From NCBI GenBank assembly GCA_964446685.1, contig CAYUPO010000004.1:20164-84163 (forward strand): a stretch of 64,000 bases of DNA. Reading direction: 5' to 3'. Below are positions 5,091 to 51,037 of this stretch, piece after piece. The notes under the pieces are model-generated. The model searched no databases, was not told the DNA's origin, and was given only the letters and a program-made list of their open reading frames with translations. The stretch is from an uncultured Gammaproteobacteria bacterium (GTDB taxonomy: Bacteria > Patescibacteriota > Microgenomatia > Daviesbacterales > UBA10151). The translations under genes were made by a program, and so were the position numbers. Numbering within the stretch: position 1 is the stretch's first letter; every line of letters starts with the position of its first letter.

Positions 5091-5197
5091 TGTTATTTCT
5101 TTTTCTCGGACTAATATTATTAACTGACTGATGTAACACAATCAACCTATATTTTATACGACTTAATGTATCAAAATTCCTATAAGTTTAACTGCTC

Positions 5198-11872: not shown

Positions 11873-13046
11873 GTATAGGTAATAAAAGTTCTACAGTAGT
11901 TCCTTTACCCTCTTTGGATTTGATACTTACAAACCCTCTATGGGCACTAACAATATCCTCAACTAAATACAAACCAAGTCCCATTCCTTCTTTGTTGTGA
12001 TTTGACCCCACAAAATAACTACTTTTAACTTGATTAATATCATTTTCTTTAATACCTAAACCTTTATCGCGGACTCGAATTCTATAATATGTATCTTTAT
12101 TATCTAAACTAAGCATTACCGGATAATCATTGGATGAGAATTTACCAGCATTATCTAATAAATTCAATATAGCCTGAAGCAACTTATCAAAATCTCCAAC
12201 AACAAAAGGATCTTTATTCTCTAGCTCATTACTAACCGAAATCGATCTATCTGGATACATAAATTTAAAATTATTCTTTGCTCTGTTTAGAATTTCAGAC
12301 AAATTACACTCTTTCCATACATAATTTGTTTTTCCAGATTTAATTCTGTTAATTTCAAGTAAATCATCAATTAAAATCCTCATCCTGTTACATTCATAAG
12401 TTAGCTGATCTGCCCATCTGCTCTCGCTAGATTCCGAACCACCTAGTCTTTTAGATAATAATTGTGAGTATCCATGTATTGCTGTTAACGGCGTTCGAAG
12501 TTCATGCGCTGCCATAGAAATAAATTTATCCCGCATATTCAGTGCTTGCTGAAGCTGGCTATAAAATTCTGCCTGAGTAATGGCTAATGTAGCCATGGAT
12601 CCAAAAAGCTGCAATACATGTAATTCTTTGTTATCAAATGATCTGTCTTTTCGCGATGATCTTACAATTAATGTTCCTAAAGCTTTTTTTTTGTATGCGA
12701 GGGGGATAAACAAACTGGAGTGAACATTTTCAAATTCTTTTTCAGGATGAGCTTTTCTTAACTCATAATAATCAATCATAAATGCTTTGTTTTTAGTAAA
12801 GGCGCGATACGAAAAACCATTTTTTCTGGTTTTAACTGCGGCAATAGAAGCAGAAGAGCTATAAACTTTTTTAAATTCCCCATTCTGTACCAATAAAATC
12901 GCCCCATCATCTCCCTTTACTAACTTAATCGCCTCATTTACAACCGTAGAGTAAATCTCCTCAGGGGATAACTGAGTAAGTAATTTAAGCACAGAAGAAT
13001 AAATCATTTCTAAAATTGATTCATCTATATCATCAGTTAGGCTCAT
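11853..13046 (-). CDS. cytoplasmic sensor histidine kinase with N-terminal GAF-like domain
   Basis: H-box HELRTPLTAIHGY, N-box LLDNAGKFS, G-boxes GMGLGLYLV and GKGTTVEL; no transmembrane segment. Confidence 0.85.
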   Translation of the reverse strand: MSLTDDIDESILEMIYSSVLKLLTQLSPEEIYSTVVNEAIKLVKGDDGAILLVQNGEFKKVYSSSASIAAVKTRKNGFSYRAFTKNKAFMIDYYELRKAHPEKEFENVHSSLFIPLAYKKKALGTLIVRSSRKDRSFDNKELHVLQLFGSMATLAITQAEFYSQLQQALNMRDKFISMAAHELRTPLTAIHGYSQLLSKRLGGSESSESRWADQLTYECNRMRILIDDLLEINRIKSGKTNYVWKECNLSEILNRAKNNFKFMYPDRSISVSNELENKDPFVVGDFDKLLQAILNLLDNAGKFSSNDYPVMLSLDNKDTYYRIRVRDKGLGIKENDINQVKSSYFVGSNHNKEGMGLGLYLVEDIVSAHRGFVSIKSKEGKGTTVELLLPIHVYDKS

Positions 13047-13220
13047 ATTATATATTATAAGTCAAAAGCCCTATAAATTCACTTTTTTTTTATATTTATT
13101 ACCATTTTCTTACATAAAACACCCACAAACAAATCAACCATGAAACTAAAAAGAAGGTAAAATTGCAATATTCTTACAAAAAAGGCTTAGGTTTTTGTAC
13201 CCAAGCCTTTGTGTACTCTA

Positions 13221-13814
13221 TTAACGATGAAGATGTGTTCTGTCATCATCTAAATCTCTGATTCTGGAAGATTCATGAGTGGTCGTAGATATGGTTCTCA
13301 CTTGTTGAGCTCCAAATTTATCCATTACTCTCATGGCTTCTTCAGTCTGAGTTCCCTGTGCAGGAACTGCGACCAAAACACCACCGCTTTTAATAGATTC
13401 TTCATAAACCCGGGCTTCATTATCAGGTACCCCAAGTCCTGTTAAAGCTCCTATTAATCCTCCGGCTAATACTCCGGTTGTGGCACCGGAAACAGTTGTG
13501 GCAGCGGCTCCACTGAGTCCTAAAGCCGCAGCTAAAGGTCCGCCGATCAAAACAGCTCCGATTCCAGGAATAGCGATAGCTCCGATACCGACTAAAAGTC
13601 CGGCTAAGGCACCAATGATTCCGCCTGTAGTCGCTCCACTGGCTGCACTTTCGGCTACACTGGCTCCTGTTGCATCAGCAACTCTTTTTCCTTCAACAGT
13701 ATCCCGCATCACAATAGATAGATCTTTTGGATCATATCCTAAGCGTTCAAGATCACCAATCGCATTTTCTGCATTATCTGAGTCACTAAAAACTCCTAAT
13801 ATCATTTTTGACAT
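13221..13814 (-). CDS. general stress protein, YflT/DUF1269-like, with glycine-zipper membrane segment
   Basis: N-terminal ILGVFSDSDNAENAIGDLERLGYDPKDLSIV, a long Gly/Ala-rich hydrophobic core, and a C-terminal EARVYEESIKSGGVLVAVP repeat of the motif. Confidence 0.5.
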   Translation of the reverse strand: MSKMILGVFSDSDNAENAIGDLERLGYDPKDLSIVMRDTVEGKRVADATGASVAESAASGATTGGIIGALAGLLVGIGAIAIPGIGAVLIGGPLAAALGLSGAAATTVSGATTGVLAGGLIGALTGLGVPDNEARVYEESIKSGGVLVAVPAQGTQTEEAMRVMDKFGAQQVRTISTTTHESSRIRDLDDDRTHLHR

Positions 13815-36031: not shown

Positions 36032-38665
36032 ATGCACGAATTTACCACTCCAATGATGAAACAATATATGGAAATTAAAAAACAGTATCAGGACTGTTTA
36101 CTGTTTTTCCGGATGGGAGATTTTTATGAACTATTTCTGGAAGATGCGCAGACTGGGGCAGAGGTATTAAATATTACCCTGACCGGCAGACCAAAAGGCA
36201 AAGACGGCAGAATTCCGATGGCCGGAGTTCCCTATCACGCGGTTGATATCTATCTGAATAAACTAGTCAAAGCCGGTTACAAAGTTGCCATTTGTGAACA
36301 GGTCAGCCTGCCCAATAAATACGGTATTATCGATCGCGAAGTTGTCAGGGTTGTCACTCCAGGAACAATACTGGATGAAAATGCTCTTGCCAAAAAAGAA
36401 AACAATTATATTGTCAGTTTAAATATTGAAAGTGGCACACTGGCCATATCATATGCAGATCTATCAACCGGTTTTTTTGCCGGATTTGAAAAAGAGATTG
36501 GGGAAAATATCGAACTAATTCATCAGGAAATCTCCAAAATCCATCCTGTTGAATGCATCCTGCCGGATGAGTTATATAACGATCCCGATGTTTTAAAAAT
36601 CTTAAGCCGTCAGAAAGGACTAAATTTATACTCATTTCAGGAATGGAATACATTTAGTACTCGTTCACATGAAGTACTCAAAGACTGTTTTGGCGTAAAA
36701 ACGCTAACTGCTTTTTCTCTGGATACCAAACCACTTCTGGCTCAGACAGCTGCAGCATTATTGGGATATTTCCAGCAGACCCAAAAAGCGGCTTTATCTC
36801 ATTTGAAAAAGTTTACTTATTTAAATGATGAAGATGTTTTATCACTGGACCGTTCAACCATTATTAACCTGGAACTTTTCTCCACAATCAGAGAACACGA
36901 CACAAAAGGCTCACTACTATTTGTCTTAGACCAGACAATTACTGCCATGGGCGGAAGGCTCCTCAAATCCTGGATCTCAAAACCTTTATCCCACAAAGAT
37001 GCGATTGAAGAGCGGTTTGATGCTGTTTCGGAAATCAACCAGACCAGTTCTCTTAAAGAAGATTTAAGAGATCAGTTAAAACAAATACCAGATATTGAAA
37101 GACTGCTTTCCCGGTTAAGTTTAAATTTAGGAAACGCCCGGGATATCGTCAATTTAAAAAACGCTCTTTTAATAATTCTGCAGGTAAAAAAATCTTTGCA
37201 CCAGACAAGATCCACCCTACTTAAGAAAACCATCAAAAACATCACTGAAAAACTATCTGAAGTTTGCTCACTTGTAGAAGCCAATATTGTTGATGAGCCA
37301 CCGATAGATACCAAATCAGGCGGAATTTTTAAAAGAGGCTTTAATTCAAAACTAGATGCACTTTATCATTCGATATCTAAAAGCAAAGATTGGGTTGCCA
37401 ATCTGGAAAAAGATGAAAGAGAAAGAACAGGTATCGGCTCTCTTAAAGTAAGGTTTAATAAAGTTTTTGGTTACTACATCGAAATCAGCAAATCAAATGT
37501 CAGTTTAGCTCCGGACAATTATCACCGCAAACAAACACTGGTCAATGGCGAACGTTTTATAACAGATGAATTAAAACATCATGAAGAAATTATTCTGACT
37601 GCTGAGGAAAAAATTAATGCTTTAGAGTATGAATTATTTTTAAAAACACTAAACCAAATCATATCTTTCACATCTGCAATCCAGGAAAGTGCCCAGGCCA
37701 TTGCCACAATTGATTGTTTAGCAAACTTTGCTTATCTAGCTGAAAAAGAAAAATATCAAAGGCCAAAACTAATCCTGTCCGGCGAAATGACGATCAAAAA
37801 TGGTCGCCATCCGGTGGTTGAAAAACTGTTAGACAGCGGACAGTTTGTGCCAAATGATGTTTTTTTTGACAAATCAAAAGCCCAGTTGCTACTAATAACC
37901 GGACCAAATATGGCCGGCAAATCTGTTTTTATTCGTCAAATTGCACTCATTACTCTGATGGCCCAAATCGGCTGCTTTGTCCCAGCAGAATCAGCAATCA
38001 TCACTCCGGTTGACCGGATCTTTGTCAGATCAGGCGCTTCCGATGTAATTACTTCCGGTCTTTCAACTTTCATGGTTGAAATGGTCGAAACAGCCTACAT
38101 CCTCAATAACTCAACTGAAAAAAGCCTAATTGTCATGGATGAAATAGGCCGGGGTACCAGCACTTACGATGGCATTTCACTGGCCTGGGCAATTGCTGAA
38201 TACTTAGTCACTCATTTTAAAATTCCACCTAAAACACTTTTTGCCACTCACTATCATGAACTACAAAAACTGGAAACATTTTTCCCCAGATCAGTCAAAA
38301 ATTATTCAATGGCCGTTGTTCAAAATGATGATCAACCAATTTTTCTTTATACAATTACACCTGAAGCCGCATCTCATTCTTTTGGAGTTGCAGTAGCCAA
38401 ACTAGCAGGGATTCCACCGGAAGTAATTCTTAACGCCACACAAAAATTAGGCAATCTTGAATCAAATAGTTCATATATTTCTCATGAAAAAACAGAGACC
38501 ACAGAAGACACAAATACCCTACTTGCCCGTGTCTTATTAAAAGAACTGGAAACAGTTGATATCTCCCTCATGACCCCACTGGAAGCACTAAATAAACTTT
38601 CTGAAATAAAAAATAAACTAAAACTCCTTCAGACTACCCATGATTCACTAATAAACACAAATTAG
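36032..38665 (+). CDS. mutS: DNA mismatch repair protein MutS
   Basis: N-terminal MKQYMEIKKQY..FFRMGDFYELF, Walker A GPNMAGKS, DEIGRGTSTYDG. Confidence 0.95.
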   Translation: MHEFTTPMMKQYMEIKKQYQDCLLFFRMGDFYELFLEDAQTGAEVLNITLTGRPKGKDGRIPMAGVPYHAVDIYLNKLVKAGYKVAICEQVSLPNKYGIIDREVVRVVTPGTILDENALAKKENNYIVSLNIESGTLAISYADLSTGFFAGFEKEIGENIELIHQEISKIHPVECILPDELYNDPDVLKILSRQKGLNLYSFQEWNTFSTRSHEVLKDCFGVKTLTAFSLDTKPLLAQTAAALLGYFQQTQKAALSHLKKFTYLNDEDVLSLDRSTIINLELFSTIREHDTKGSLLFVLDQTITAMGGRLLKSWISKPLSHKDAIEERFDAVSEINQTSSLKEDLRDQLKQIPDIERLLSRLSLNLGNARDIVNLKNALLIILQVKKSLHQTRSTLLKKTIKNITEKLSEVCSLVEANIVDEPPIDTKSGGIFKRGFNSKLDALYHSISKSKDWVANLEKDERERTGIGSLKVRFNKVFGYYIEISKSNVSLAPDNYHRKQTLVNGERFITDELKHHEEIILTAEEKINALEYELFLKTLNQIISFTSAIQESAQAIATIDCLANFAYLAEKEKYQRPKLILSGEMTIKNGRHPVVEKLLDSGQFVPNDVFFDKSKAQLLLITGPNMAGKSVFIRQIALITLMAQIGCFVPAESAIITPVDRIFVRSGASDVITSGLSTFMVEMVETAYILNNSTEKSLIVMDEIGRGTSTYDGISLAWAIAEYLVTHFKIPPKTLFATHYHELQKLETFFPRSVKNYSMAVVQNDDQPIFLYTITPEAASHSFGVAVAKLAGIPPEVILNATQKLGNLESNSSYISHEKTETTEDTNTLLARVLLKELETVDISLMTPLEALNKLSEIKNKLKLLQTTHDSLINTN

Positions 38666-38764: not shown

Positions 38765-40414
38765 ATGAAAACAATTCACAAACTAACTCCTTCCCAAATT
38801 GCCAAAATAGCCGCCGGTGAAGTTATTGAAAAACCAGCTTTTGCAGTCAAAGAACTAATTGAAAATTCACTTGATGCCCAGTCAAAACATATCCAGATTT
38901 TTATTGAGGAGGGTGGTCTTAAAAAAATTCTGATCATTGATGATGGTGTAGGTATGTCTGAAGAAGACCTCAAAGAATGTTTCAAACTACATACCACCAG
39001 CAAAGTCACACAGGATGATTCTTTAAATGCCATCAGATCAATGGGTTTTCGGGGTGAAGCTTTGGCCTCTCTGGCTTCCATCAGCCGGATGTCACTTCAA
39101 AGCCGGACAAATAAAGCTCCCTCCGGAACCAAAATCACACTTGCAGAAGGGAAATTATTATCCTCCTCTCCTATTGGCATGCCTTACGGCACCCAAATTG
39201 AGATCAGAGATCTCTTTTACTCTGTTCCAGGCAGAAAAAAATTTATGGAAAATCCCCAAAAGGAATACCGGACTATCCTGGATTGGGTTATCCGGATCGC
39301 CTTAGCCAATCCAACCATTCGTTTTACACTAACTCACAATAAAAAATTAGTCTTTGACCTGCCAGGTGATCAGGAAGTTATGGATCGGCTTAAATATTTT
39401 CTGAAGGAAGATTTTAAACTTTTACCTATTAATTTCGAAGATACTTATGTCAATATCAGCGGCTTTACTTCCTCAGCTTCTATTTCAACTTCCAGTTCAT
39501 CCAAACAGTTTATCTTTGTTAACAACCGCCCAATAACCGATAAATTAGTTTCAACAGCCATCAAAGAGGCATATGGTACAACAATTGAACACAATAAATA
39601 TCCAATTTATTTTATCCATATCTCTGTCCCACCGGAAATGGTAGATGTAAATGTTCACCCCAGAAAAGAGCAAGTAAATTTACTCAATCGTCAATTAATT
39701 TTTGATCAGGTCCAAAAAGCTATTTTCCAGACTTTGCAGATAAGTCATCCCTTATCTGAGATTTCAAAGCCCCCCTCTATTACAAAATCGTTTGCCGGAG
39801 AGATTTTAAGGGGTCAGGACGAATTATTTATGCTGGAAAAAAAATTCGTCAACTTAGATAAAATATTACAAATACATGATTTATTTTTATTAATTCAGGC
39901 ACAAAATGGACTAATTATTGTTGATCAACATGCTGCACATGAGCGAATTTTATATGAACAATTTAAAAAAGATTTTGAAAATAAAAAAAATAAAAAATTT
40001 AAACTTTTACACCCTCTAAAACCAGAATTTTCGATACTGGAAAATCAAATTCTGTTAGAAAACAAGGGATTTCTGGAAAATCTCGGATTTTCAGTAAATT
40101 TTAAAACAGGTACATCTATTACTCATATTCCGGAGTTACTAAAGGATCGAAATATTACCGAAATCCTAACCGAATTCATTGAACAGATCATTCAAGAAAA
40201 AAGTATTTCAATAGACTTAAAATCAGACCAGCTGCTGAAATATCTAGCCTGTAGAAGTGCAATCAAATCAGGCGATAGAATAGACACAAAACAGGCAAAA
40301 TCTCTGGTTGAAAAGCTATTTCAAACCCCAAACCACACCCACTGCCCCCACGGCCGCCCAACCTTCATTCTTCAACCGCTAAAGGAATTAAATAAACAGT
40401 TTAAACGTTTCTAG
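38765..40414 (+). CDS. mutL: DNA mismatch repair protein MutL
   Basis: N-terminal IAKIAAGEVIEKPAFAVKELIENSLDA ATPase motif; C-terminal CPHGRP endonuclease-domain motif. Confidence 0.95.
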   Translation: MKTIHKLTPSQIAKIAAGEVIEKPAFAVKELIENSLDAQSKHIQIFIEEGGLKKILIIDDGVGMSEEDLKECFKLHTTSKVTQDDSLNAIRSMGFRGEALASLASISRMSLQSRTNKAPSGTKITLAEGKLLSSSPIGMPYGTQIEIRDLFYSVPGRKKFMENPQKEYRTILDWVIRIALANPTIRFTLTHNKKLVFDLPGDQEVMDRLKYFLKEDFKLLPINFEDTYVNISGFTSSASISTSSSSKQFIFVNNRPITDKLVSTAIKEAYGTTIEHNKYPIYFIHISVPPEMVDVNVHPRKEQVNLLNRQLIFDQVQKAIFQTLQISHPLSEISKPPSITKSFAGEILRGQDELFMLEKKFVNLDKILQIHDLFLLIQAQNGLIIVDQHAAHERILYEQFKKDFENKKNKKFKLLHPLKPEFSILENQILLENKGFLENLGFSVNFKTGTSITHIPELLKDRNITEILTEFIEQIIQEKSISIDLKSDQLLKYLACRSAIKSGDRIDTKQAKSLVEKLFQTPNHTHCPHGRPTFILQPLKELNKQFKRF

Positions 40415-40598
40415 CATTTGTAATACTGCCTCTGACATTCATATCTACTTCGCCAAAGGCTTTGCCAGACAAGCACAGGCATAAATTCAAATATAACTTA
40501 GATAATAGATTGACAGATGATTGTTTTTACAGTATTGTTTTACTCCAGAGAGATGAATATCTGGAAATCAAAAAACAATTTAAATATTTTTTCCCACT

Positions 40599-40622
40599 AG
40601 AGCCACAGGGCTCTTTTTTTTT
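40599..40622 (+). terminator. rho-independent terminator after mutL
   Basis: agagcc-aca-gggctct followed by T9. Confidence 0.6.
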
Positions 40623-40645
40623 GGAAAAATAGTTAGAAAACATAT

Positions 40646-41140
40646 ATGCATGAAGTAAAATTATGGCATCCAGAATTACCAAACCTTTCTGGAGGTAATG
40701 ATAAGTTAAAAATCGGAGTCGCCTCTGTAGGGAGATTACTCACAATAATATCAGAAGATGCCCCTTCACTTAGACTGGGTGGTTTACCTTCACATCATTT
40801 AAAAAGAATTGCTCAGTATAGCGATCAAACTCCGTTGTGGATGATAAACCATCTGGGAATATCACAACCTGATTATATCGGAAAAAGTAACAATTTTGAT
40901 TTTGATATCCTTTTAAAAGAAAATGAATTTCTTGTAAAAGAACCCGACGAGTACAGACAATCCAGACATCTACAAATGATGGTGCAAGCGATTTTAAGAG
41001 GCGAACTACCACCAAATCGATACACAGATTTAATCCCAGATCAATGGCAAGATCAGATCGCTCAAGAAATAGCTAAATATGATTCAGGTCAAAAAAGATT
41101 CGTTGGACTGAAAGCTAAAGATCTTTTTACAACTACCTAG
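40646..41140 (+). CDS. hypothetical protein
   Basis: 164-aa ORF with no recognised motif. Confidence 0.4.
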   Translation: MHEVKLWHPELPNLSGGNDKLKIGVASVGRLLTIISEDAPSLRLGGLPSHHLKRIAQYSDQTPLWMINHLGISQPDYIGKSNNFDFDILLKENEFLVKEPDEYRQSRHLQMMVQAILRGELPPNRYTDLIPDQWQDQIAQEIAKYDSGQKRFVGLKAKDLFTTT

Positions 41141-41195
41141 GAAAAAATAGCCATTTTGTGCTAAAATTTACCAGTTCAAGACGTTTAAACAAAAT

Positions 41196-41266
41196 TGCCG
41201 AGTCGTCTAATGGTAGGACGACAGATTCTGGATCTGTCTATTGGGGTTCAAATCCCTGCTCGGCAA
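41196..41266 (+). tRNA. tRNA-Gln (anticodon CUG)
   Basis: Acceptor tgccgag/ctcggca, D arm cgtc-taatggtag-gacg, anticodon arm acaga-ttCTGga-tctgt, T arm tgggg-ttcaaat-ccctg; no encoded CCA. Confidence 0.7.
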
Positions 41267-41311
41267 CAAGATTAATTTCATAAACTGCAATGAACGAAGT
41301 TCAAGCAGCAA

Positions 41312-41389
41312 CGACAGATTCTGGATCTGTCTACTTCCGCAGGAAGGAGGAGTTTACTCCTCATTGGGGTTCAAATCCCTGCTCGGCAA
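41312..41389 (+). repeat. partial duplicate of the tRNA-Gln 3' half with a 30-nt insertion (att-like scar)
   Basis: acagattctggatctgtcta + cttccgcaggaaggaggagtttactcctca + ttggggttcaaatccctgctcggcaacaa. There is no complementary 5' acceptor strand upstream. Confidence 0.6.
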
Positions 41390-41507
41390 CAAAGGCTTAT
41401 TTGATCACCATTTGCGAAATTATAGCGATTTTGGGGTTGAGGCTGTGTTAATATACCTCAACTAGATCTTTTGAAATAAAGCATAATTGAACAGCATTTA
41501 TGTGGGA

Positions 41508-42014
41508 TTATATTTTGTTAAACCTTATAAGAGAATCATAAGGTTTAACACCAGTTTCAATTCGTTCAGGGATATCATAAGGTGAGTGAACAACTAAAAA
41601 TTCCAAATTTTTGAACTTTTCTGGCAACTCATGTCCCAGGTTTGTTGAATTTATCCCATTCCATAAATACCAATAACCAACCTTTCCGGACTTATAATCA
41701 ACGAATGCAGATATAAACTCTGGAAATATAAAATCTTTAACTTCGCTATGACCAACAATCTTCCATAAACCTATTTTGATAGCAGCCATCAATCCAGTTA
41801 TTACAGGTGGAAAAAGTTCTTTTCTTGCAATAATGTCTTCAATTGGAATCTGCTCTTCTAAATTGGTAATCAGATCAAAAACTTTTATTAGTGGACCATT
41901 TTTTGAATCCCAAAAGACATATTGTCCAAAAGCCTTTTTATTGTTTGACAAAGGAATTTCAAAAATATCACCCACTTTAATAAATTTATTATTCATCGGC
42001 AAATTATAACCCAA
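41508..42014 (-). CDS. putative immunity protein for the orphan Rhs C-terminal toxin
   Basis: 168-aa cytoplasmic ORF immediately downstream of, and overlapping, the orphan toxin cassette. The assignment is by position only. Confidence 0.35.
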   Translation of the reverse strand: MGYNLPMNNKFIKVGDIFEIPLSNNKKAFGQYVFWDSKNGPLIKVFDLITNLEEQIPIEDIIARKELFPPVITGLMAAIKIGLWKIVGHSEVKDFIFPEFISAFVDYKSGKVGYWYLWNGINSTNLGHELPEKFKNLEFLVVHSPYDIPERIETGVKPYDSLIRFNKI

Positions 42015-42540
42015 CTCTATTTAAAATATCACTTCCTTTTGTAACTGATTCATTATATATAGGGTTTTGAGGTGAAATACTGTTGATTTTGTTCAATAAG
42101 TTTCCAAGTCCGCTATTTTCAATTAATACTTGTTCAACTGCTTTAGCATCAGATCTTGTTAATCCGGTTAATCCTGGAATCCCTTGAAGTGATATGCCTT
42201 TAGTTGCTAAATGTTCCGAAGCTCTTCTTGCTAAATCATTAGTGATTCCATAGTAATAAGGAACTCCATTTTTAAGTGCCTGATAAACAGACACTGCTGC
42301 TTTAACCTCATTAGTACAATCACCATCTCTACATGCTGCCGCAGTACAGACGGAGCCAAGTTTTAGAAGTCCTCCAACAAACTGACCTGAAGGATCTGAT
42401 AGATTAATAGGATCAGTATTTGCAAAATTGTACCCATTTTGTGTATTAGGCTGATTAATGATACCTTCAACAGGATCTTTTGAGATAAATCCTCCTATTG
42501 TTGGGTCATAGTAGCAGATCTTTGTAAAAATTATAAATAC
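42004..42540 (-). CDS. orphan Rhs C-terminal cassette: core-end motif plus GIY-YIG-like nuclease toxin domain (no N-terminal body, no ATG at the 5' edge)
   Basis: The reverse-strand reading frame gives YYDPTIGGFISKDPVEGIINQPNTQNGYNFANTDPINLSDPSG, paralogous to the full-length Rhs core end. It is followed by VSVYQALKNGVPYYYGITNDLARRASEH...E...N, the GIY-x10-YIG-R-H-E-N pattern. Confidence 0.5.
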   Translation of the reverse strand, partial: VFIIFTKICYYDPTIGGFISKDPVEGIINQPNTQNGYNFANTDPINLSDPSGQFVGGLLKLGSVCTAAACRDGDCTNEVKAAVSVYQALKNGVPYYYGITNDLARRASEHLATKGISLQGIPGLTGLTRSDAKAVEQVLIENSGLGNLLNKINSISPQNPIYNESVTKGSDILNRVGL

Positions 42541-42554
42541 AACACCAATTGGTA

Positions 42555-42866
42555 TCAGTATATATTAAACAATATTATGCCTACAAAAAATGTCAAAAAA
42601 GCAATTATGAAGCTAAACCTTACTGCTAGAATTTCCTTTCTTAATTTATTATTTTTAAGATTTTTAGAAAAAAGATCATGGTAATACATTTCAGATTCTT
42701 CTGTGGTAGTTCGCTTATAATACAAAAAGTCACTAAAACCACTATCAGGCCTTTTGTTTATTTTTCGAAGTTTTTGAAAATACTTTACCGTTGTAACAAA
42801 CAAAAGTAATCCAATACCAAAATAAACAATAAAAAATGTAATTCTTATAGTTAAACTCAGATCCAT
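42555..42866 (-). CDS. small two-transmembrane-helix membrane protein, putative immunity protein of the full-length Rhs toxin
   Basis: 103 aa with two hydrophobic helices, directly downstream of the rhs gene. Confidence 0.4.
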   Translation of the reverse strand: MDLSLTIRITFFIVYFGIGLLLFVTTVKYFQKLRKINKRPDSGFSDFLYYKRTTTEESEMYYHDLFSKNLKNNKLRKEILAVRFSFIIAFLTFFVGIILFNIY

Positions 42867-42888
42867 ATAATCGCTTTATAAAACTTAT

Positions 42889-45800
42889 TTAGAATAGAAC
42901 AAATAAGGCATCTTTAACAGCCTCTAAAAATGTATATTTAGACGTATACTCAATTCCGGCAGGTTTAACATCAACAGGTAAGGCACCGATTCCTCCACTG
43001 ATTCCCATATTAGTTTGGTTTAACTGCTTAGTAATGGGATCAAAATTACCTTGCCCAGTAACCCCTACACGCACAGGAAAAGGAAGATCAATAGAACCTC
43101 CTGATACTACACTCATTCCATGGAGATCTGACATTTTTGAGGCAGATTTGCTATTTAACCAAGTAATATCTCCTCCTAGTGCAATATTCGGATTTGCACC
43201 AAAACTAACTGATTTTGTAGCCCCAACCTGCCAGTTATCCCCAACACCAATACATCTTTGTGTCGAGACATAGCCTCCTGCACCAGCAGAACAGCTAAAA
43301 CATATACCATTTACGGCTAACCCTGAGGGATCTGACAGATTAACTGGATCACCATTTGCAAAGTTGTATCCATTCTGAGTTTGTGGATTTGTTAAGATTC
43401 CTTCAACTGGATCCTTAGAGATAAAGCCTCCTGTGGCCGGGTCGTAGTACCGGGCTCTCATGAAATAGAGGTTTGTTTTGTCATCCAGATCTTCACCTTT
43501 ATATTGGAAATTAGCTGCTGGACCTCCGGTGAGGGAGTTACCGAAGGCATCATATGTATAAGCCTGAATATTGCTACCACCTGCTCCAACTACAAATCTG
43601 GTATTTCCCAGTCCATCCTCCAGATAGTATTTTCTATCAGAGTATCCATCTTTTCCTTCACTAACAAGCCCTACACCATAAATATAACTTGATGAATTAT
43701 TGTTTACATCAACCGTATACAAAACTTTCGACAAGTCACCCGAATTATCATTCACATATTTTAATACTGTAGTTGCTCCGGCTTTCTCAGCAATTCTATT
43801 ACCTTTTCCATCATAGACATATCCGGCATTCTCTCCAGTTGCTGGATTATTGAAACTGATTAATTTATTTTCAAAGTTGTATCCAAAAGATTTTCCATTG
43901 CCCGCTGTAGTGGAATTGGTTCTATTACCATTGTTATCGTAGGCATAAATAGTGCTTCCCTGGGTCGTCAACTGATTATCATTATTGTATGCATAATTTA
44001 TCTGTTGCCCCTGTTTTGTACTTGTCAGCCGATTTCCAACTTTATCATAAGTGTAGCCAAATGAATTATTGTTTGGGTAAGTTGCAGTTATCAAACGCAT
44101 CAGGTTGTCATAAGCAAATGTTGTTTGAGTATTTTCAGGGGATGTGACCTGATTATATTCAAGTTTAACCTGAGCTCCACCTCCCCATTCAAAATATTCC
44201 ATCACAATATTATGTGTACCTGCTGTTAGATTTTTATATACTGAATAAGTTGTTGGAGACTGTCCTCTCCATCCATCTAATACCTTTTCTCCGTCTATAA
44301 ATAGTCTAACCCCATCATCTCCGGTTGCTTTAAACTGATACATACCTGCAGCAAAATTTTGAGCTTTAGTCCATCTGGCTACAAAGTAATCCGATGTCAA
44401 TGAAGGATCTGGTGAAGATCCATCCCAGTTAAAGTTAATGTTTGCATCATTTCTTGAAAATGTCGGAGCTGTGTTTGGAAAGACAAAACCTGAATCAGTC
44501 GCAACATTCCAATATTGACCGGAAAAACCACTATCTGCTCCTGAGAGCTGAGTCATATCGAACTTAGCCACAGCACCCCAACCATCCTCATAGTATTCCA
44601 TAACTACTGTATGATTACCGGAAGTCAGACTTTTATCAGCAGTATAAGTTGTAGGGCCCTGATTGATCCATTTATCAATAATTCTTTCCCCATCAACATA
44701 CAGTCTAACTCCATCATCAGCAGTCACTTTAAACTGGTACACTCCAGCAGATAAGTTAGCTGTTTTAGTCCACTTTGCCATAAATCGATCAGTATCAATA
44801 AGAGGCTCAGGTGAGTTACCTTGCCAGTCGAAGTTAATAGTTGAATCTGTCCTGGTTAATTGGGGAGTGGTAGACGGTATTGTAAAAGAAGTTCCTGACC
44901 CTAAATTCCAATACTGTCCGGTAAAATTGGTCATTGTTGAAGTTGTAGAAATCTGACTAATATCAAGTTTTGCCAATGCACCCCAAGCGTTTTCGTAGTA
45001 TTCCATAATAATTGTATGGTTACCTGCTGCCAAATTTTTATTTATTGAATAAGTAGTAGGACCTTGGTCAACCCATTTATCAATCACTTTTTCTCCATCT
45101 ATAAATAACCTGACTCCATCATCTCCAGTTACGCTAAATTGATAATTTCCGGCAGTCAGATTGGTTGTCTTAGTCCATCTGGCTACAAAGTTGTCTACAT
45201 TAATACCAGCTGCCGGAGAATTTCCTCCCCAATCAAAGTTCACCGTTGTATCAGTTCTGGTGAGATTTGGTGTAGTAGTTGGAATTACCGGATTACTTCC
45301 TGCAGGTACATTCCAGTATTGACCTGTAAATCCCGTAATTGTTGCCTCAAGTTGCGTTACCTCCAATTTAGCGACAGCATCTCCACCATTCTCATAATAT
45401 TCCATTATCACCGTGTGATTACCAGCAGTTAGATTTTTTTCAATTGTTTCTGATGTAGTACCCTGGTCAACCCATTTATTAATAACCTGTTGCCCATCTA
45501 TAAACAACCTAAAACCATCATCACCGGTAACTTTAAAACTATAATTCCCGGCTGCAAAATTTGCTGTTTTCGTCCAGCGAGCAACAAAATTATCAGTATT
45601 AATCGGTGATCCAGGTGTTCCCCCTGCCCAGTTAAAGTTAACCGTGTTATCAGTTCGGGATAATTGCGCGCTAGTTGAAGGAATTGCCGGACTACCACCA
45701 CCTGCTGTATTCCAGTACTGAGCAGAAAAGTCTTTTAGTTCAAAAACCCCAGAGGGAGGGGGAGTTGATAGGCTTGTAGGTATTACTGTTGCATCCAGTA

Positions 45801-48800
45801 ATGAATTTTCGGTAACGGCTGTGATATTTCCAAGATTATTTCTAGTGTAATTAAATTTTGCCAGTGCAATATTTCCCTGTAGATGAGAAACTTCAGTTAT
45901 TTTATTGGCATTATCATATTGGTAATTTGTTTTTATTCCATTTGGATAAGTTCTTGAAGACAAGGTACTATTTTTATTATATTGATAATTAGTCTGCCCA
46001 CCGTTCCAATCATTTATATTGAGTAATCTTCCAGATCCATCATAATTATAAGAAACAGATCGGCTATCCGGATAAGTTATCTTGGTCAGATTATTCGCCA
46101 TATCATATTCATATTGAACCATAGCATTATTTGAATCCTTAGCAGAAATTAAACGATCAAAGACATCATAGGTATATGTTGTTGTTCCTGAAGGATCTAT
46201 CATCGTCAGAAGATTGCCCCGGTTATCATATGTGTATGAAATATTTGTTGTGTTAGGATAGTTTATTTTTTTCAGTCTATTTAGACTGTCATATTCATAA
46301 GTTGTAGTTTGGTTGTTACTATCTATTCTTTTGCTGATATTTCCCACCTGATCATATTCCCATTTCATTACTTTCCCCAAAGGAGTCGTGCTCTGAGTTC
46401 GCTGATTTAATTTGTCATATGCAAATTGAGTAGTTCTGTTTAAAGCGTCTTGCTTGGAAGTTATATTCTGGTATTGATCATATCCATAATTTGTTACTCC
46501 ACTTAGCGCGTCGGTCACTGAATTAAGACTTTGGTTCGCGTTATAACTTAACTGCGTTGAAGAATTATTAGGCTCAGTTATCCTGATTAATTTATTCTCA
46601 GCATTAAATACATTTGTAGTTGTTCCCAAAGAAGTAACAGAAGTCAGCAGATTATTATTGTTATCATATGTAAACGCTGTGGTTTTATTATCAGGGTCTT
46701 TGACCAAAGTTAACCTACCCAAAGTGTCATATGTATAGGTTGTAATATTTGACTGGGGATCTACAGAAGTCAAAATATTATTTAAGCTATCTCTTGTATA
46801 TGCTGCTGTTTTATTAAGCGGATCTGTTACACCAATTAATTGTCCTTTTGGATTGTATGAATATTTAGTGACTTTTGATCCCTCAGTTGTCTGCACCAAA
46901 TTGCCTGCTTGGTCATAACTATAGCTGGTAATTTTATTTCCACTATATCTTTGGTCAGTTGTTTTTGTTACATTATTTTTCACGTCATATTCAAAATTAA
47001 CACTAACCCCTGCAGGATCTTTTTTAGAAACAACATTTCCATTTGCATCATAATTAAAAGTAGAAATGTTTCCTTTTTTATCCTTTACAGTGAGAGGAGC
47101 GAACTCCGTTCCGTAGGTATATTCCTGTGCGTTATTTAAAGCATCCTGCTCTTTAAGAACTCTTACTTTATTATCAAAAATAGTCTTTCCCACCCGACCT
47201 TGATTATCTGATGAAGTAACAGTATTGGTAGTATTATCATAAGCGTATGTAACTATTTTTCCGTTAGCATCTTTTTGTGTGAGTAGCCGACCATCAGCAT
47301 TATAAGTATTAGTCAACACTAGCTGATTTAATCGATTAGTAATGGTTAGTAAACGATTATTGCTATCGTAAGCATATTTTGTTGCGCTACCTTTTGGATC
47401 ATTGACTGAAGTTAAGTTTCCTAAAGAGTCATAACCATAAGTTGTAACTCTTCCAGCCCAATCAGTAATAATATTTACTAATCCAGTAGTTGCGTTATAA
47501 GCCAAATTCAAATAATGGTTATTATCATCTTTTATCTGTGTCAGCTTACTATTACCGTCATAATAATAACTAATTTTATTCCCATTTTTATCTTTAATCT
47601 GTGTTAGTTTAAGTGAGGCATCAAAAATATACTCTGTTTGATCTATTGTTCTGGCAAAGTAACTTCCATCAGGCTTAATAAAAAATTTAGTATGAAAAGC
47701 AGGGTCTAAGGCAGTGTATTCACCACCACAATATCGATACTCAAATGTTTCTCTTTTACCATCCTGAAATGTTAAAGCAACTTTTCTATATCCATAGCCT
47801 TCATTTGGGCATCCAAGTTTTTCATCCCAACCCCAGTATGTTTGAGTCAAACTAGCTGGAAATAAATCCCATCCATTACCTATACTATTTTGAGCACTAC
47901 TATAAGAATTATATGCTCTGTTCAACTGCAATGATAAATCATTACTAACAGAAGTTGAAAAATCAGAAACTGCGGTAGAATACGATCCTACACTTCTAAA
48001 CGCCTCCGCTTCCACTGCAACTGAATCATAAGTTTGACCATTGCTGACAAAAGTCCAATGAACATCTTCTTTATTAACTGACTGAGATTGAGAAGCACTT
48101 TTTAAAGTACTAGCCATCCCAGAATCAGCAATATACGTATTGGCAGTTGAGAAATCCGCACCACCGCTAATTTGAGTATCGGTATTCCCTTGAGTCACCC
48201 ACGGAGTATATAAACGTGGTTTAGTTCGGGCCGTAGGATTATAGTTTGGCTGATAATTCTTTGCCCATTCAAAATTATTAGCAATTCCGGCATCTTTGAT
48301 CCATTTAATAACTCCAACAATTTGAGACAACTGTTTCGTTTGTAAATATGATGGTGATTCCTTAGCAAATTCATCATAAAGATCAGTTTGCTGTTGAGCA
48401 AAAGCAATCGCTGCATTGTTCCACTGTGGTGAGTTAGCTGCACTTGTTGGTTCTGTTAAAATCTGCATTTTAACTTGATCAAAAATAAAAGATTTTGACA
48501 CATCATCTTTTTTCAAACTTACTAGTTTTGGTGTAATCCACCATCTAGATCCTGGTGATCCAGAAGTAATTCCATTCTCTTGATATCTTTGCCAAAAAGA
48601 TTTGTAGCCTGCTACAGTAGATACAAGTACAGAACCATCAGCATTATAACCTTGACTATATTGTTTCATTTTATAATCAGCATCAAGAATAGTTTGCCCA
48701 AATTTAGTATCTTCTAAACCATCACTAAATATGACCTGCATTGGTTGAGTACGATTAGTATCATTGACTTGCGTTTCAAGACTTACAAATGGAATTGCAT

Positions 48801-49161
48801 TATTAAAAATAAGCGACCTAATAGTTACGGCTAAATCATCTTTATTAAACTTTGGTGCAGATGTATTTGTTTTTCCAATAAAAACAATTCGGTCAAGAGT
48901 ACTATCGTAATAAGCTCCAGTATACTCTGACATATTTGCCAAAAATGTAGCCGCTTGGTTTAATGCAACTCCTCCCGGTCTGACACCTGGAGCACCAACT
49001 GCTCCCCCTACTCCTCCACATGACTGAGCATTTACTGAAGAAGGACTTATTGAAAGCAACAAGTAATTTGAAATTGAAGTTAAAGTCAGAACCAATATCA
49101 AGGAAAGTGAAATAGTAGAATTAAAAACTTTGCTTAATTTACTGCTTTTTTTATTTATCAT
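42889..49161 (-). CDS. Rhs/YD-repeat polymorphic toxin (2090 aa): signal peptide, YD repeats, four tandem PA14 domains, Rhs core with DPSGL, variable C-terminal toxin domain
   Basis: Many YxYDxxGN(L/R) repeats; four ~135-aa repeats (F(T/S)GQYWN...DFxA(R/K)WTKTxN...GDDGxRLxxDG...); core end ARYYDPATGGFISKDPVEGILTNPQTQNGYNFANGDPVNLSDPSGL, then a ~150-aa Gly-rich tail. Confidence 0.9.
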   Translation of the reverse strand: MINKKSSKLSKVFNSTISLSLILVLTLTSISNYLLLSISPSSVNAQSCGGVGGAVGAPGVRPGGVALNQAATFLANMSEYTGAYYDSTLDRIVFIGKTNTSAPKFNKDDLAVTIRSLIFNNAIPFVSLETQVNDTNRTQPMQVIFSDGLEDTKFGQTILDADYKMKQYSQGYNADGSVLVSTVAGYKSFWQRYQENGITSGSPGSRWWITPKLVSLKKDDVSKSFIFDQVKMQILTEPTSAANSPQWNNAAIAFAQQQTDLYDEFAKESPSYLQTKQLSQIVGVIKWIKDAGIANNFEWAKNYQPNYNPTARTKPRLYTPWVTQGNTDTQISGGADFSTANTYIADSGMASTLKSASQSQSVNKEDVHWTFVSNGQTYDSVAVEAEAFRSVGSYSTAVSDFSTSVSNDLSLQLNRAYNSYSSAQNSIGNGWDLFPASLTQTYWGWDEKLGCPNEGYGYRKVALTFQDGKRETFEYRYCGGEYTALDPAFHTKFFIKPDGSYFARTIDQTEYIFDASLKLTQIKDKNGNKISYYYDGNSKLTQIKDDNNHYLNLAYNATTGLVNIITDWAGRVTTYGYDSLGNLTSVNDPKGSATKYAYDSNNRLLTITNRLNQLVLTNTYNADGRLLTQKDANGKIVTYAYDNTTNTVTSSDNQGRVGKTIFDNKVRVLKEQDALNNAQEYTYGTEFAPLTVKDKKGNISTFNYDANGNVVSKKDPAGVSVNFEYDVKNNVTKTTDQRYSGNKITSYSYDQAGNLVQTTEGSKVTKYSYNPKGQLIGVTDPLNKTAAYTRDSLNNILTSVDPQSNITTYTYDTLGRLTLVKDPDNKTTAFTYDNNNNLLTSVTSLGTTTNVFNAENKLIRITEPNNSSTQLSYNANQSLNSVTDALSGVTNYGYDQYQNITSKQDALNRTTQFAYDKLNQRTQSTTPLGKVMKWEYDQVGNISKRIDSNNQTTTYEYDSLNRLKKINYPNTTNISYTYDNRGNLLTMIDPSGTTTYTYDVFDRLISAKDSNNAMVQYEYDMANNLTKITYPDSRSVSYNYDGSGRLLNINDWNGGQTNYQYNKNSTLSSRTYPNGIKTNYQYDNANKITEVSHLQGNIALAKFNYTRNNLGNITAVTENSLLDATVIPTSLSTPPPSGVFELKDFSAQYWNTAGGGSPAIPSTSAQLSRTDNTVNFNWAGGTPGSPINTDNFVARWTKTANFAAGNYSFKVTGDDGFRLFIDGQQVINKWVDQGTTSETIEKNLTAGNHTVIMEYYENGGDAVAKLEVTQLEATITGFTGQYWNVPAGSNPVIPTTTPNLTRTDTTVNFDWGGNSPAAGINVDNFVARWTKTTNLTAGNYQFSVTGDDGVRLFIDGEKVIDKWVDQGPTTYSINKNLAAGNHTIIMEYYENAWGALAKLDISQISTTSTMTNFTGQYWNLGSGTSFTIPSTTPQLTRTDSTINFDWQGNSPEPLIDTDRFMAKWTKTANLSAGVYQFKVTADDGVRLYVDGERIIDKWINQGPTTYTADKSLTSGNHTVVMEYYEDGWGAVAKFDMTQLSGADSGFSGQYWNVATDSGFVFPNTAPTFSRNDANINFNWDGSSPDPSLTSDYFVARWTKAQNFAAGMYQFKATGDDGVRLFIDGEKVLDGWRGQSPTTYSVYKNLTAGTHNIVMEYFEWGGGAQVKLEYNQVTSPENTQTTFAYDNLMRLITATYPNNNSFGYTYDKVGNRLTSTKQGQQINYAYNNDNQLTTQGSTIYAYDNNGNRTNSTTAGNGKSFGYNFENKLISFNNPATGENAGYVYDGKGNRIAEKAGATTVLKYVNDNSGDLSKVLYTVDVNNNSSSYIYGVGLVSEGKDGYSDRKYYLEDGLGNTRFVVGAGGSNIQAYTYDAFGNSLTGGPAANFQYKGEDLDDKTNLYFMRARYYDPATGGFISKDPVEGILTNPQTQNGYNFANGDPVNLSDPSGLAVNGICFSCSAGAGGYVSTQRCIGVGDNWQVGATKSVSFGANPNIALGGDITWLNSKSASKMSDLHGMSVVSGGSIDLPFPVRVGVTGQGNFDPITKQLNQTNMGISGGIGALPVDVKPAGIEYTSKYTFLEAVKDALFVLF

Positions 49162-49864
49162 TTTTTAATCCAACTTCCTGAGCAGATGCAGATGAACTAG
49201 ACACTGCTGTATTTTTTTCTTTAGTTGGAGACGATGCTTCTTTATCTTTTACTTTTAGTGATGTTAATGATTCCTTTTTTTGTGATTTTTTAATCTTCTT
49301 AACCTTCTTGGGGCTTTCAGCCATCTTTTTCTGTTTATTATCTTCTAAAGTTCCCTGGGAAGAGAGTTCGTCATTTACAGTTTTTTTGACTGATAAATTA
49401 TCTTCTTCTTCAATAAAATTTAATTTTGCATCAAAACTTATCACTTGCTTTGAATTTGGTAGAACATATATATTAGGAAGTTCTAAAGTTGTGTTATCAA
49501 TTCCAGTTACTCCCTGAACATTGTGAATAAAATGAATAGCATCTCGTCTGATATTAGTTTTGAGTTTAGAAAAAGGATAAGGCTTATCAGTGCCATTGGA
49601 AAGAACAAATGAAAAACGAACTGTATCCCCACCATCCATCTCACCATTATTATTTAAATCACCCTTTTCAGTTAGCTGAATATCTGAAGTTATTTCTATT
49701 TTAGAATCATCAACTCCTTTTGGAGTCTTTTCACTTCCTAAAAGTTTTTTTCCAGATTCTATAAGATCATCAAAGGTAAGAGCTTGAGCAATTGAGGCAG
49801 AGAAAGACAGGAAAACAAGAAGTGCTAGGATAAGAACTATTTTTAAATTTTTAAATTTGCCCAT
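49151..49864 (-). CDS. secreted hypothetical protein with Lys-rich C-terminus
   Basis: Signal peptide MGKFKNLKIVLILALLVFLSFSASIAQA; overlaps the rhs start by 11 bp. Confidence 0.5.
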   Translation of the reverse strand: MGKFKNLKIVLILALLVFLSFSASIAQALTFDDLIESGKKLLGSEKTPKGVDDSKIEITSDIQLTEKGDLNNNGEMDGGDTVRFSFVLSNGTDKPYPFSKLKTNIRRDAIHFIHNVQGVTGIDNTTLELPNIYVLPNSKQVISFDAKLNFIEEEDNLSVKKTVNDELSSQGTLEDNKQKKMAESPKKVKKIKKSQKKESLTSLKVKDKEASSPTKEKNTAVSSSSASAQEVGLKNDK

Positions 49865-49914
49865 TAAGATTTTATGGTTCAGTGAATAATAACAAAGTTG
49901 ATTTAATTGTCAAT

Positions 49915-49949
49915 ACATCATAAAAACCACGGGCTTTCGCTCCGTGGTT
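49915..49949 (-). terminator. hairpin terminator (bidirectional) after the 49997..50305 gene
   Basis: aaccacgg-gctttcgct-ccgtggtt flanked by A/T runs on both sides. Confidence 0.5.
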
Positions 49950-49996
49950 TCATTTTTTCTGTCTGAAGTCCGTCCTCATCAAACAAATTTTATTTT

Positions 49997-50305
49997 TTAT
50001 TTAGAAACTATTTTTTTAACTTCCTCAGTTGTCTCCTCAGCTTTTCCTTCTAGTTGAGCTGTTGCTTCATCTTTCATGCTAGCAGCATATTCTTTGGCTT
50101 TTTCACCAACAGCTTTTGCAACTTCATGAGCTTTCTGATTTATTTTTTCATCTTTCATTGCCATTGCTCCGGCAACTCCCAGACCTGCTCCGACTATTGC
50201 ACCGGCAACACCAGCCACAACAGGATTAATATCAGAATGATCATTTTTAGCAGAATTTTTTTGTCCCTGTTTATTATGATTTTGTGTATTTGAATTATTT
50301 TGCAT
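49997..50305 (-). CDS. small glycine-zipper protein with Lys/Glu-rich tail (stress-protein-like)
   Basis: VVAGVAGAIVGAGLGVAGAMA segment followed by a KAxE-rich region; 102 aa. Confidence 0.4.
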   Translation of the reverse strand: MQNNSNTQNHNKQGQKNSAKNDHSDINPVVAGVAGAIVGAGLGVAGAMAMKDEKINQKAHEVAKAVGEKAKEYAASMKDEATAQLEGKAEETTEEVKKIVSK

Positions 50306-50391
50306 CTTTCTCCTCCTTCCTTTAGTAAAAATATTGTAGGGTTACAAAGTATGAAGAAGACATTAACAATGATAGAGTTATGTAAAGTTGA

Positions 50392-51024
50392 TTAGCTGAT
50401 ACTAATTCTATTTCTAGCAAAGATAGAACCAAGCCAGGTATGCGGATTACCATCCCAGCACCAACCTAACTTAGCCTGGTTTGCACTGATCCAAAATGCC
50501 GGCACTCTTTGGTCTCCAGAGCGTGATGCCAGTAGGGAAAAACATTTATTTTTTTCTAAAATTTCCGGAAAATGTGTCATTACCGCAATCCCTTCATCGA
50601 TTGTTAAAGGAGTATTTTCATTTTTTAAAATTTCAATTAAAGCATCCTGCGGACGGATATTTAAATACTGCTCCCCTCTATTGATATTAGTTAATAAATA
50701 TATTTCCCCCGGAATACTGACTTTATCTGATGGAATAAATTTTTCAATATCTACTGGAAATAAATTTAAAATCGGACTTTTTCCTTTGTACTCAATTTTA
50801 TCCAGTCTCTCTTTTACATCAATTAAACTATTTGTCACCACTATCACAAAAGGAATCAATCCTTTCTCCAGATCATATTCAGTATTTTGTAATTGACCAA
50901 GTTTATCTTTTAACTGCTCAAATTTATTTATAAACTGGTTTTGATTTAATCCGGCTAACTTCGGGTAACCTTTACTAATTAAGTTATTTATCTGTCTGTC
51001 AAATTCTTTATTTAATTCTTCCAT
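50392..51024 (-). CDS. hypothetical protein
   Basis: 210-aa ORF with no recognised motif. Confidence 0.4.
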   Translation of the reverse strand: MEELNKEFDRQINNLISKGYPKLAGLNQNQFINKFEQLKDKLGQLQNTEYDLEKGLIPFVIVVTNSLIDVKERLDKIEYKGKSPILNLFPVDIEKFIPSDKVSIPGEIYLLTNINRGEQYLNIRPQDALIEILKNENTPLTIDEGIAVMTHFPEILEKNKCFSLLASRSGDQRVPAFWISANQAKLGWCWDGNPHTWLGSIFARNRISIS

Positions 51025-51037
51025 TTTTATTTCCCTT

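Follow-up and report, generated by a model that had tools for sequence, protein, structure and literature searches.

A partial copy of tRNA-Gln(CUG) in a Microgenomates-group genome and its possible origin as a recombination junction

Introduction

A 64-kb stretch of contig CAYUPO010000004.1 (the window, meaning the whole 64,000 nucleotides (nt) analysed) carries an intact tRNA-Gln(CUG) gene followed closely by a copy of its own 3' part. The copy has no 5' acceptor strand, is split by a 30-nt insert, and lies at the edge of an rhs toxin locus. What is this fragment, and how did it come to lie there? The original prediction took it for the footprint of a tRNA-targeted integration by which the rhs island entered, with the integrase lost later, or alternatively for a tRNA-derived structured element with two hairpins. 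The answer favoured here, tentatively and at a little short of an even chance, is that the fragment is the remnant junction of site-specific recombination at a tRNA-Gln(CUG) hotspot and not a second tRNA gene.

The tRNA gene and its partial copy

The sole tRNA called by ARAGORN in the window is tRNA-Gln(CUG) at 41196-41267 on the plus strand, with the anticodon ctg. The gene is intact and scores 58.8 bits against Rfam RF00005 (41196-41266). It can be divided into three plus-strand blocks: block A, the 5' acceptor strand and D arm (41196-41217); block B, the anticodon arm (41218-41240); and block C, the T arm and 3' acceptor strand (41241-41268). Blocks B and C recur downstream on the same strand. 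The B sequence, ACGACAGATTCTGGATCTGTCTA, is found again at 41311-41333 as a 23-nt exact repeat, and the C sequence, TTGGGGTTCAAATCCCTGCTCGGCAACA, at 41364-41391 as an exact repeat of 28-30 nt, the figure of 30 counting one flanking base on each side (41240-41269 = 41363-41392). Neither pair contains a mismatch, and neither was matched in 100 shuffles. The repeats are direct, with the two B blocks 93 nt apart and the two C blocks 123 nt apart. The B copy corresponds to tRNA nt 24-46, which are the last D-stem bases, G26, the anticodon stem-loop and the first three variable-loop nt. The C copy holds the T arm, the 3' acceptor strand, the discriminator and 2-3 nt of trailer. Ahead of the copy there is neither a 5' acceptor strand of the TTGCCGAG type nor a D arm.

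The two copied blocks are separated by a 30-nt insert, CTTCCGCAGGAAGGAGGAGTTTACTCCTCA (41334-41363, plus strand), placed exactly at the variable-loop position. A plus-strand spacer (41270-41310) separates the tRNA from the fragment. The gap had been given as 45 nt; it is 41-42 nt between blocks, and the larger figure holds only when counted from the tRNA end to 41312. The roughly 18 nt after each C block are weakly alike (AAGATTAATTTCATAAAC versus AAGGCTTATTTGATCACC).

The copy, at 41311-41391, was not called as a tRNA by ARAGORN at default settings or by Rfam even at E<=10. Relaxed ARAGORN thresholds produced spurious calls only, and a synthetic join of the tRNA 5' half to the fragment was also uncalled at defaults. 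Three further assemblies (Logan SRR21621038, Logan SRR21621035 and JGI 3300043411) agree with the window at every one of the 370 nt of 41141-41510. With no tRNA call and with identity in three assemblies, the duplicate therefore stands as it had been described, a partial tRNA-Gln copy with exact blocks, a 30-nt insert and no 5' acceptor strand.

About 28 nt upstream of the tRNA, at 41157-41167 on the plus strand, is an extended -10-like motif, TGTGCTAAAAT (TTACCAGTT). The motif aligns upstream of tRNA-Gln in the window and in lineages L005, L007 and L012, and a simple sigma-70 scan missed it. Judged from its sequence, it is a putative tRNA promoter. The fragment region contains no terminator-like site, and its promoter-like sites are no commoner than in shuffled sequence.

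Recurrence of the fragment and a 39-nt module

The fragment, or part of it, was recovered in three instances, from the window, L010 and L022; L010 and L022 are from unrelated samples. In L010 (JGI 3300045332), whose MutL is 61% identical to that of the window, the whole arrangement recurs on the minus strand: after the tRNA (5038-4967) come a spacer of 38 nt, the copied anticodon arm, an insert of 35 nt (CTTCCAAAGGAAGGAGGCGAACGTAGTGAGACTCA) and a T-arm/acceptor block with one substitution. The spacers of the window and L010 are homologous (9 of 2000 shuffles reached the score), and spacer and insert are about 60-65% identical between the two. The variants in each fragment match those of the adjacent tRNA. 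The window has T at position 32 and TTCAAAT in the T loop, where L010 has A and TTCGAAT.

L010 can be compared with L012, which has the tRNA and no fragment. L012 11273-12272 is collinear with L010 4871-3871, with an excess of about 124 nt in L010. An APH gene adjoins the C block of the fragment in L010 exactly as it adjoins the 3' end of the intact tRNA in L012. Thus the C block occupies the ancestral tRNA 3' position, as expected of a displaced fragment.

L022 (ERR8482638) is a close strain of the window lineage, with a 191-amino-acid (aa) protein, encoded by the first conserved gene beyond the variable DNA, that is 97% identical. It bears GCGACAGATTCTGGATCTGTCTACTTCCACAGGAAAGAGG on the minus strand at 11073-11034, and 39 nt of this (11072-11034) match the window at 37 of 39 positions. 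The site lies in a divergent intergenic region, 1.1 kb past the rhs gene. The L022 contig has no T-arm block at this site and no tRNA, and in a shuffle test its flanks resembled the window and L010 flanks, spacer and C block no better than shuffled sequence did. Since L022 shares only these 39 nt, the recurring unit is a 39-nt module, and an island of homology of this length between unrelated flanks is the pattern of a site joining different DNA segments.

In the window the module lies at 41312-41350 on the plus strand and reads CGACAGATTCTGGATCTGTCTA + CTTCCGCAGGAAG + GAGG; in L010 it is on the minus strand at about 4927-4889. It consists of tRNA nt 25-46, a hairpin CTTCC-NNN-GGAAG and GAGG, and has the shape of two abutting imperfect palindromes.

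Variation around tRNA-Gln in related lineages

In each of nine related lineages, whose MutL proteins are 60-67% identical, mutL is followed by tRNA-Gln(CUG), and the genes on both sides of the tRNA differ among the nine. The cargo includes APH-type phosphotransferases, an MFS transporter, methyltransferases, Cyt-b5, DUF2200 and an AsnRS/AspRS-like paralogue. In L007, L009 and L015 a second promoter-like conserved stretch, TTGAACCTGTTATACTC, is found ahead of the cargo gene 3' of the tRNA. In the window, tblastx synteny with L007, L009 and L012 breaks off at 40414 and restarts at 51038. Therefore the tRNA, the fragment and the Rhs locus all lie inside one 10.6-kb variable region, a hypervariable stretch at 40415-51037 that holds lineage-specific cargo between mutL and the conserved 191-aa gene. 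Together these comparisons support tRNA-Gln(CUG) as a hotspot of recombination and integration.

The variation extends to the level of strains. L009 and L010 have an identical MutL protein and flanks about 99% identical, yet they differ in cargo, tRNA orientation and presence of the fragment. Between DUF2200 and a CMAS-like methyltransferase, L009 (5649-7092) carries MFS cargo and L010 (3824-5187) APH cargo, and the two tRNA-Gln genes are in opposite orientations. The window lineage, L010 and L022 have the fragment, and L005, L007, L009, L012, L014 and L015 do not; the L013 contig stops at the tRNA 3' end and is uninformative on this point. The tRNA of L012 is identical to that of the window, without the fragment.

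The orthologous tRNAs (window, L012, L013, L015, L007-L010, L014 and L005) vary only in the anticodon and T arms. The variant sites are position 32 (T or A) and the T loop (A or G), with more in L005, and there is no variation in the first 25 nt from the 5' end. The tRNA variant of the window also occurs in L012 and L013, and the variants show no obvious match to MutL relatedness. This mismatch hints that the 3' part of the tRNA may have been replaced horizontally.

Upstream of the inverted tRNA-Gln in L010 (about 5060-5105) and L014 (about 7806-7860, at the contig end), a 5' tRNA fragment, TGCTGAGTCGTCTAATGGTA, is followed by an inverted D-arm copy, CCATTAGAC. The two form a hairpin-like inverted repeat, a scar that an inversion or a second integration may have left. 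The occurrence of 5' tRNA fragments in both lineages thus points to more than one rearrangement at tRNA-Gln.

A large serine recombinase at the tRNA in L005

In L005 an open reading frame (ORF) of 535 aa (11751-13358, minus strand) overlaps tRNA-Gln (11713-11786). Its Resolvase, Recombinase and Zn_ribbon_recom domains identify it as a large serine recombinase (LSR). The final 12 codons are the complement of the 3' part of tRNA-Gln. Beyond the recombinase are small ORFs, one of them with a helix-turn-helix domain. The L005 tRNA equals the others over the 5' 25 nt and its differences start at the anticodon arm, the same boundary at which the window fragment starts. If the seven L005 differences were spread uniformly, all of them would lie within the 3' 51 of the 76 nt with a probability of about 0.06, and the coincidence of the two boundaries is suggestive only.

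The minus strand of the window, read through block C into the insert, gives ...LLPSRDLNPNEE and a stop, in the same frame as the L005 C-terminus, ...WLPSRDSNPNK and a stop. The insert as the stop codon of a lost integrase was considered and is not supported, L010 having no stop in that frame.

A proposed remnant recombination junction

The favoured course of events is as follows. The anticodon arm of tRNA-Gln is palindromic by nature; a site-specific recombinase would recognise its DNA, and this would be where mobile or exchangeable segments become joined to the chromosome. The 39-nt module would then consist of the recombinase-recognised core, which is the anticodon arm, and an element-side arm (CTTCC-NNN-GGAAG-GAGG). 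The tRNA gene would originally have ended in what is now the displaced T-arm/acceptor block, and the 3' part of the intact upstream tRNA would have been regenerated. The element behind the junction would have been lost from the window or have shrunk to the 42-nt spacer, with no recombinase left, and the Rhs orphan array would later have grown, or been cut, up to the fragment. A recombinase as the presumed maker of the junction, its probable identity, the likely crossover position and the module as a putative binding site all belong to this proposal.

The main arguments for a recombination junction are the module between unrelated flanks in L022 and the patchy, strain-level distribution of the fragment. 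Of the integration footprint that had been predicted, the targeting of a tRNA gains from the hotspot, from the recombinase at the tRNA in L005 and from the empty site in L012. The entry of an Rhs island with the duplicate as its footprint is not supported: about 42 nt lie between the copies, the Rhs array is outside them and no recombinase was found in 40415-51037.

A number of results weigh against the junction. First, the full Islander signature is absent, with only 42 nt between tRNA and fragment. A third copy of the tRNA 3' segment, which had been proposed to mark the far end of an island, was not found across the 64 kb with up to 3 mismatches or by blastn-short. Second, the 30-35-nt insert lies inside the identity block, which no simple attL/attR model predicts. 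Third, the fragments track their own tRNAs while spacer and insert have diverged, and this needs co-adapted elements, gene conversion or selection. Fourth, no recombinase was found nearby. Pfam found no recombinase domain in the ORFs of 40415-51037, the L005 recombinase had no tblastn match in the window, and its search together with four DNA patterns against viral_contigs returned nothing. A blastn search of the 205-nt region against phage genomes returned generic phage tRNA-Gln genes only. For the L005 element, neither the 10 kb past the recombinase nor L020 yielded a tRNA fragment, with 541 nt between the loci unseen. Finally, no excised or circular form was seen, and there are three known instances only.

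Alternative explanations

The alternative that survives best, though it is unlikely, is a local tandem duplication. Replication slippage or unequal exchange would have duplicated the anticodon arm, T arm/acceptor and trailer, a short insertion would have followed, and the product would have no function. Short-tract gene conversion with the functional tRNA would hold the blocks identical while spacer and insert drift. This accounts for blocks that are 100% identical to the neighbouring tRNA, lineage variants included, beside a spacer and insert at about 60-65%. The direct repeats 93 and 123 nt apart and the lack of a recombinase nearby fit as well, and the weak likeness after the C blocks (AAGATTAATTTCATAAAC/AAGGCTTATTTGATCACC) is expected of an old tandem duplicate. 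The distribution, however, is patchy: the fragment is found in two lineages at 61% MutL identity and is absent from L009, with the same MutL as L010, and from most relatives. A tandem duplication would thus have had to be lost many times or to spread horizontally. That insert and spacer are still homologous at such divergence speaks against neutral DNA, and the module of L022, elsewhere, between unrelated flanks and with no adjacent tRNA on the contig, is left unexplained. In addition, repeats of 23-30 nt are near the lower length limit of homologous recombination for conversion tracts.

More doubtful is a functional tRNA-derived RNA. The putative RNA would be a trailer co-transcribed with the tRNA, with an anticodon-arm mimic and hairpin and with or without the T arm. 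For a protein recognising the anticodon arm of tRNA-Gln it would act as decoy, as binding platform or as processing signal. The window segment folds as five consecutive hairpins with z = -3.06, and none of 200 shuffles was as stable. The copied tRNA arms supply much of this favourable fold, however, and the L010 homologue folds no better than shuffled sequence (z = -0.79). The spacer hairpin is CTGC-aa-TGAAC-GAA-GTTCA-a-GCAG at 41285-41308. Its inner stem shows one compensatory change, TGAAC/GTTCA in the window versus TAAAC/GTTTA in L010; this is one of 27 predicted pairs and comes from two sequences, and covariation has no statistical power at n = 2-3. The insert forms two predicted hairpins, i1 = CTTCC-GCA-GGAAG (41334-41346) and i2 = GAGGAG-TTTA-CTCCTC (41347-41362). 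The i1 stem is kept and its loop varies (GCA in the window, AAA in L010, ACA in L022). In L010 another sequence, of 22 nt, takes the place of i2, and L022 lacks i2. Thus of the two-hairpin element that had been predicted, the first hairpin is conserved in three contexts and the second is not.

Other features are compatible with an RNA. The mimic follows the variants of its cognate tRNA, the module is kept in L022 despite replacement of both flanks, and the fragment lies directly 3' of a tRNA with a conserved promoter-like motif. Against this, the T-arm block is missing in L022, and the fragment is absent from most relatives, including L009, the strain that shares its MutL with L010. There is no Rfam match for the fragment as a structured RNA, no terminator and no consistent downstream gene. 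A recombination site at the DNA level predicts palindromes equally well.

Two further candidates for the hairpins and their surroundings were rejected. An acceptor-like helix closing the fragment would have a predicted pairing of just 3 bp (GCA/UGC). A dispersed repeat of the REP (repetitive extragenic palindrome) or MITE (miniature inverted-repeat transposable element) kind does not fit an insert that has no further copy in the window; the hairpin motif has one exact occurrence, and its 1-mismatch matches are unrelated. The sole match of the insert pattern in metagenome_contigs, L011, was set aside as chance because the contig is unrelated, high in GC and without a tRNA.

It is improbable, but conceivable, that the 39-nt module is itself a functional, portable element of Microgenomates-type members of the candidate phyla radiation (CPR), either a site for cassette-exchange recombination or a tRNA-mimic RNA co-evolving with its cognate tRNA. 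As a recombination site it would shuttle rhs toxin/immunity and phosphotransferase cassettes at the tRNA-Gln hotspot, maybe by way of serine recombinases.

A second, unusual tRNA with a long variable arm or intron, or a small ORF across the fragment, is effectively refuted. The insert is indeed located precisely at the variable loop, and the first of its hairpins is similar to the variable arm of class II tRNAs, but there is no 5' acceptor strand or D arm. Neither ARAGORN nor Rfam called the copy, and the synthetic join was not called at default settings either. ORFs of 53 aa (41290-41451) and 74 aa (41241-41465) span the fragment. They were rejected as coding: neither is conserved, the ATG of the 53-aa ORF is ATA in L010, and L022 shares 39 nt only. 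An assembly artefact, a repeat mis-joined in one metagenome-assembled genome, has only the general risk of short repeats in metagenome assemblies in its favour and is refuted by the identical sequence in three assemblies of other runs or projects and by the homologous layouts in L010 and L022.

The Rhs side and neighbouring genes

About 11 nt from the fragment, on the minus strand, lies a truncated orphan rhs core-end (41403-41482). It is 78% identical to 43347-43427 in the main core end and to 42411-42489 in the first orphan. Its translation, ...EGILTQPQPQNRYNFANGDQISL, is cut ahead of the DPxGL motif. With a truncated orphan next to the fragment, the junction on the Rhs side has the look of a breakpoint and not of an island end bounded by attachment (att) sites. 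At its other side the Rhs-containing region ends at 51037, straight against a backbone gene and without a tRNA-derived repeat.

The remainder of the array is also on the minus strand. An Imm26-family immunity gene (41508-42014; Pfam PF15428, E = 7.4e-12) is the last complete gene of the orphan array. Next to it is a short toxin-like ORF (42004-42294), the C-terminal toxin (CT) of the first orphan, with a weak GIY-YIG match, and a 103-aa ORF is listed between this ORF and the main rhs gene. The core-end of the first orphan (42386-42513) is a repeat about 78% identical to the main core end (43322-43449), which translates as ...YDPATGGFISKDPVEGILTNPQTQNGYNFANGDPVNLSDPSGL. The main rhs gene (42889-49161) encodes 2090 aa with RHS repeats, four PA14 domains and CE2_N by Pfam. 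Compared with L022 3874-10146, it has 92% nt identity up to window position 43100, past which L022 has a different CT and different immunity genes.

Upstream of the tRNA on the plus strand are mutS (36032-38665), mutL (38765-40414) and, in the variable slot between mutL and the tRNA, an orphan ORF of 164 aa (40646-41140). The latter was tried as a synteny anchor; it matched only itself among 5.8 billion proteins and has no Pfam domain. The backbone from 51038 begins with the 191-aa gene and continues with RsmB, Pterin_4a, GluRS and others. The organism was grouped with the CPR/Patescibacteria, Microgenomates group, because the named relatives of MutL and of the 191-aa protein are Roizmanbacteria, Daviesbacteria and Microgenomates. 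The species-representative genome collection (genome_contigs) is without a close representative of the window lineage: the exact 28-mer of the tRNA 3' end had no match in it, and MutL found no relative.

Comparison with known systems

In canonical tRNA-targeted integration an intact tDNA is followed by an island with its integrase and then by the displaced fragment (PMC4383910). Integration pervasively leaves tRNA gene fragments as a by-product (PMC9897764, PMC4383910), and annotations often mistake them for tRNAs (PMC9897764). Because such fragments are common, a remnant junction would be a mostly ordinary outcome. The att sublocation centred on the anticodon is the commonest, with 2083 of 3919 Islander islands (PMC4383910). 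The present fragment is a worked example of one that annotation pipelines must not call a tRNA. It marks a hypervariable hotspot between mutL and tRNA-Gln in poorly known CPR, where toxin/immunity and phosphotransferase cassettes are swapped between strains. If its recurrence between unrelated flanks is confirmed, the 39-nt module could define the actual recombination site of this clade, or an RNA mimic. The serine recombinase coupled to a tRNA gene in L005 would, if confirmed, represent a target class that was stated in 2014 not to be known for serine integrases (PMC4383910).

The window fragment resembles the displaced tDNA fragments in being a direct copy from the anticodon arm to 2-3 nt past the 3' end, with the tRNA intact. 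Such fragments (attL/attR) of islands and prophages in tRNA genes were reportedly described by Reiter in 1989 and Williams in 2002. The hotspot with strain-specific cargo and empty-site relatives is likewise that of tRNA-gene islands. Unlike those fragments, it lies 42 nt and not kilobases from the tRNA, with no integrase between or beside. Its identity block is broken by a 30-35-nt insert conserved across lineages, and a 39-nt sub-module of it stands alone in L022.

In tandem accretion arrays of the CIME (cis-mobilizable element) type, several att-like copies are found at one tRNA and the integrase is lost, although there is one fragment per member and usually each member has its own integrase. 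More than one att-like copy at one tRNA is also seen here, and an array of this kind would explain both the very short element and the variable DNA beyond it. Unlike such arrays, the Rhs segment of the window has no distal fragment. The att sites of LSRs form a quasi-palindromic size class of about 40 bp. The module is also about 40 bp and quasi-palindromic, and an LSR gene overlaps the tRNA in L005, but the window has no LSR and the L005 element shows no tRNA fragment in the sequence covered.

tRNA-derived RNAs include small RNAs from 3' trailers, such as 3'ETS-leuZ, and anticodon-arm mimics, such as the thrS operator. The fragment recalls both, as it lies in the tRNA 3' trailer and contains an exact anticodon-arm mimic beside a GGAGG motif. 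It differs in that its structure is unconserved beyond the copied arms and one hairpin and that no consistent regulated gene lies downstream. Integration-derived tRNA fragments as such are well known; what is unusual here is the short distance of 42 nt, the insert conserved at the variable-loop position and the portable 39-nt module.

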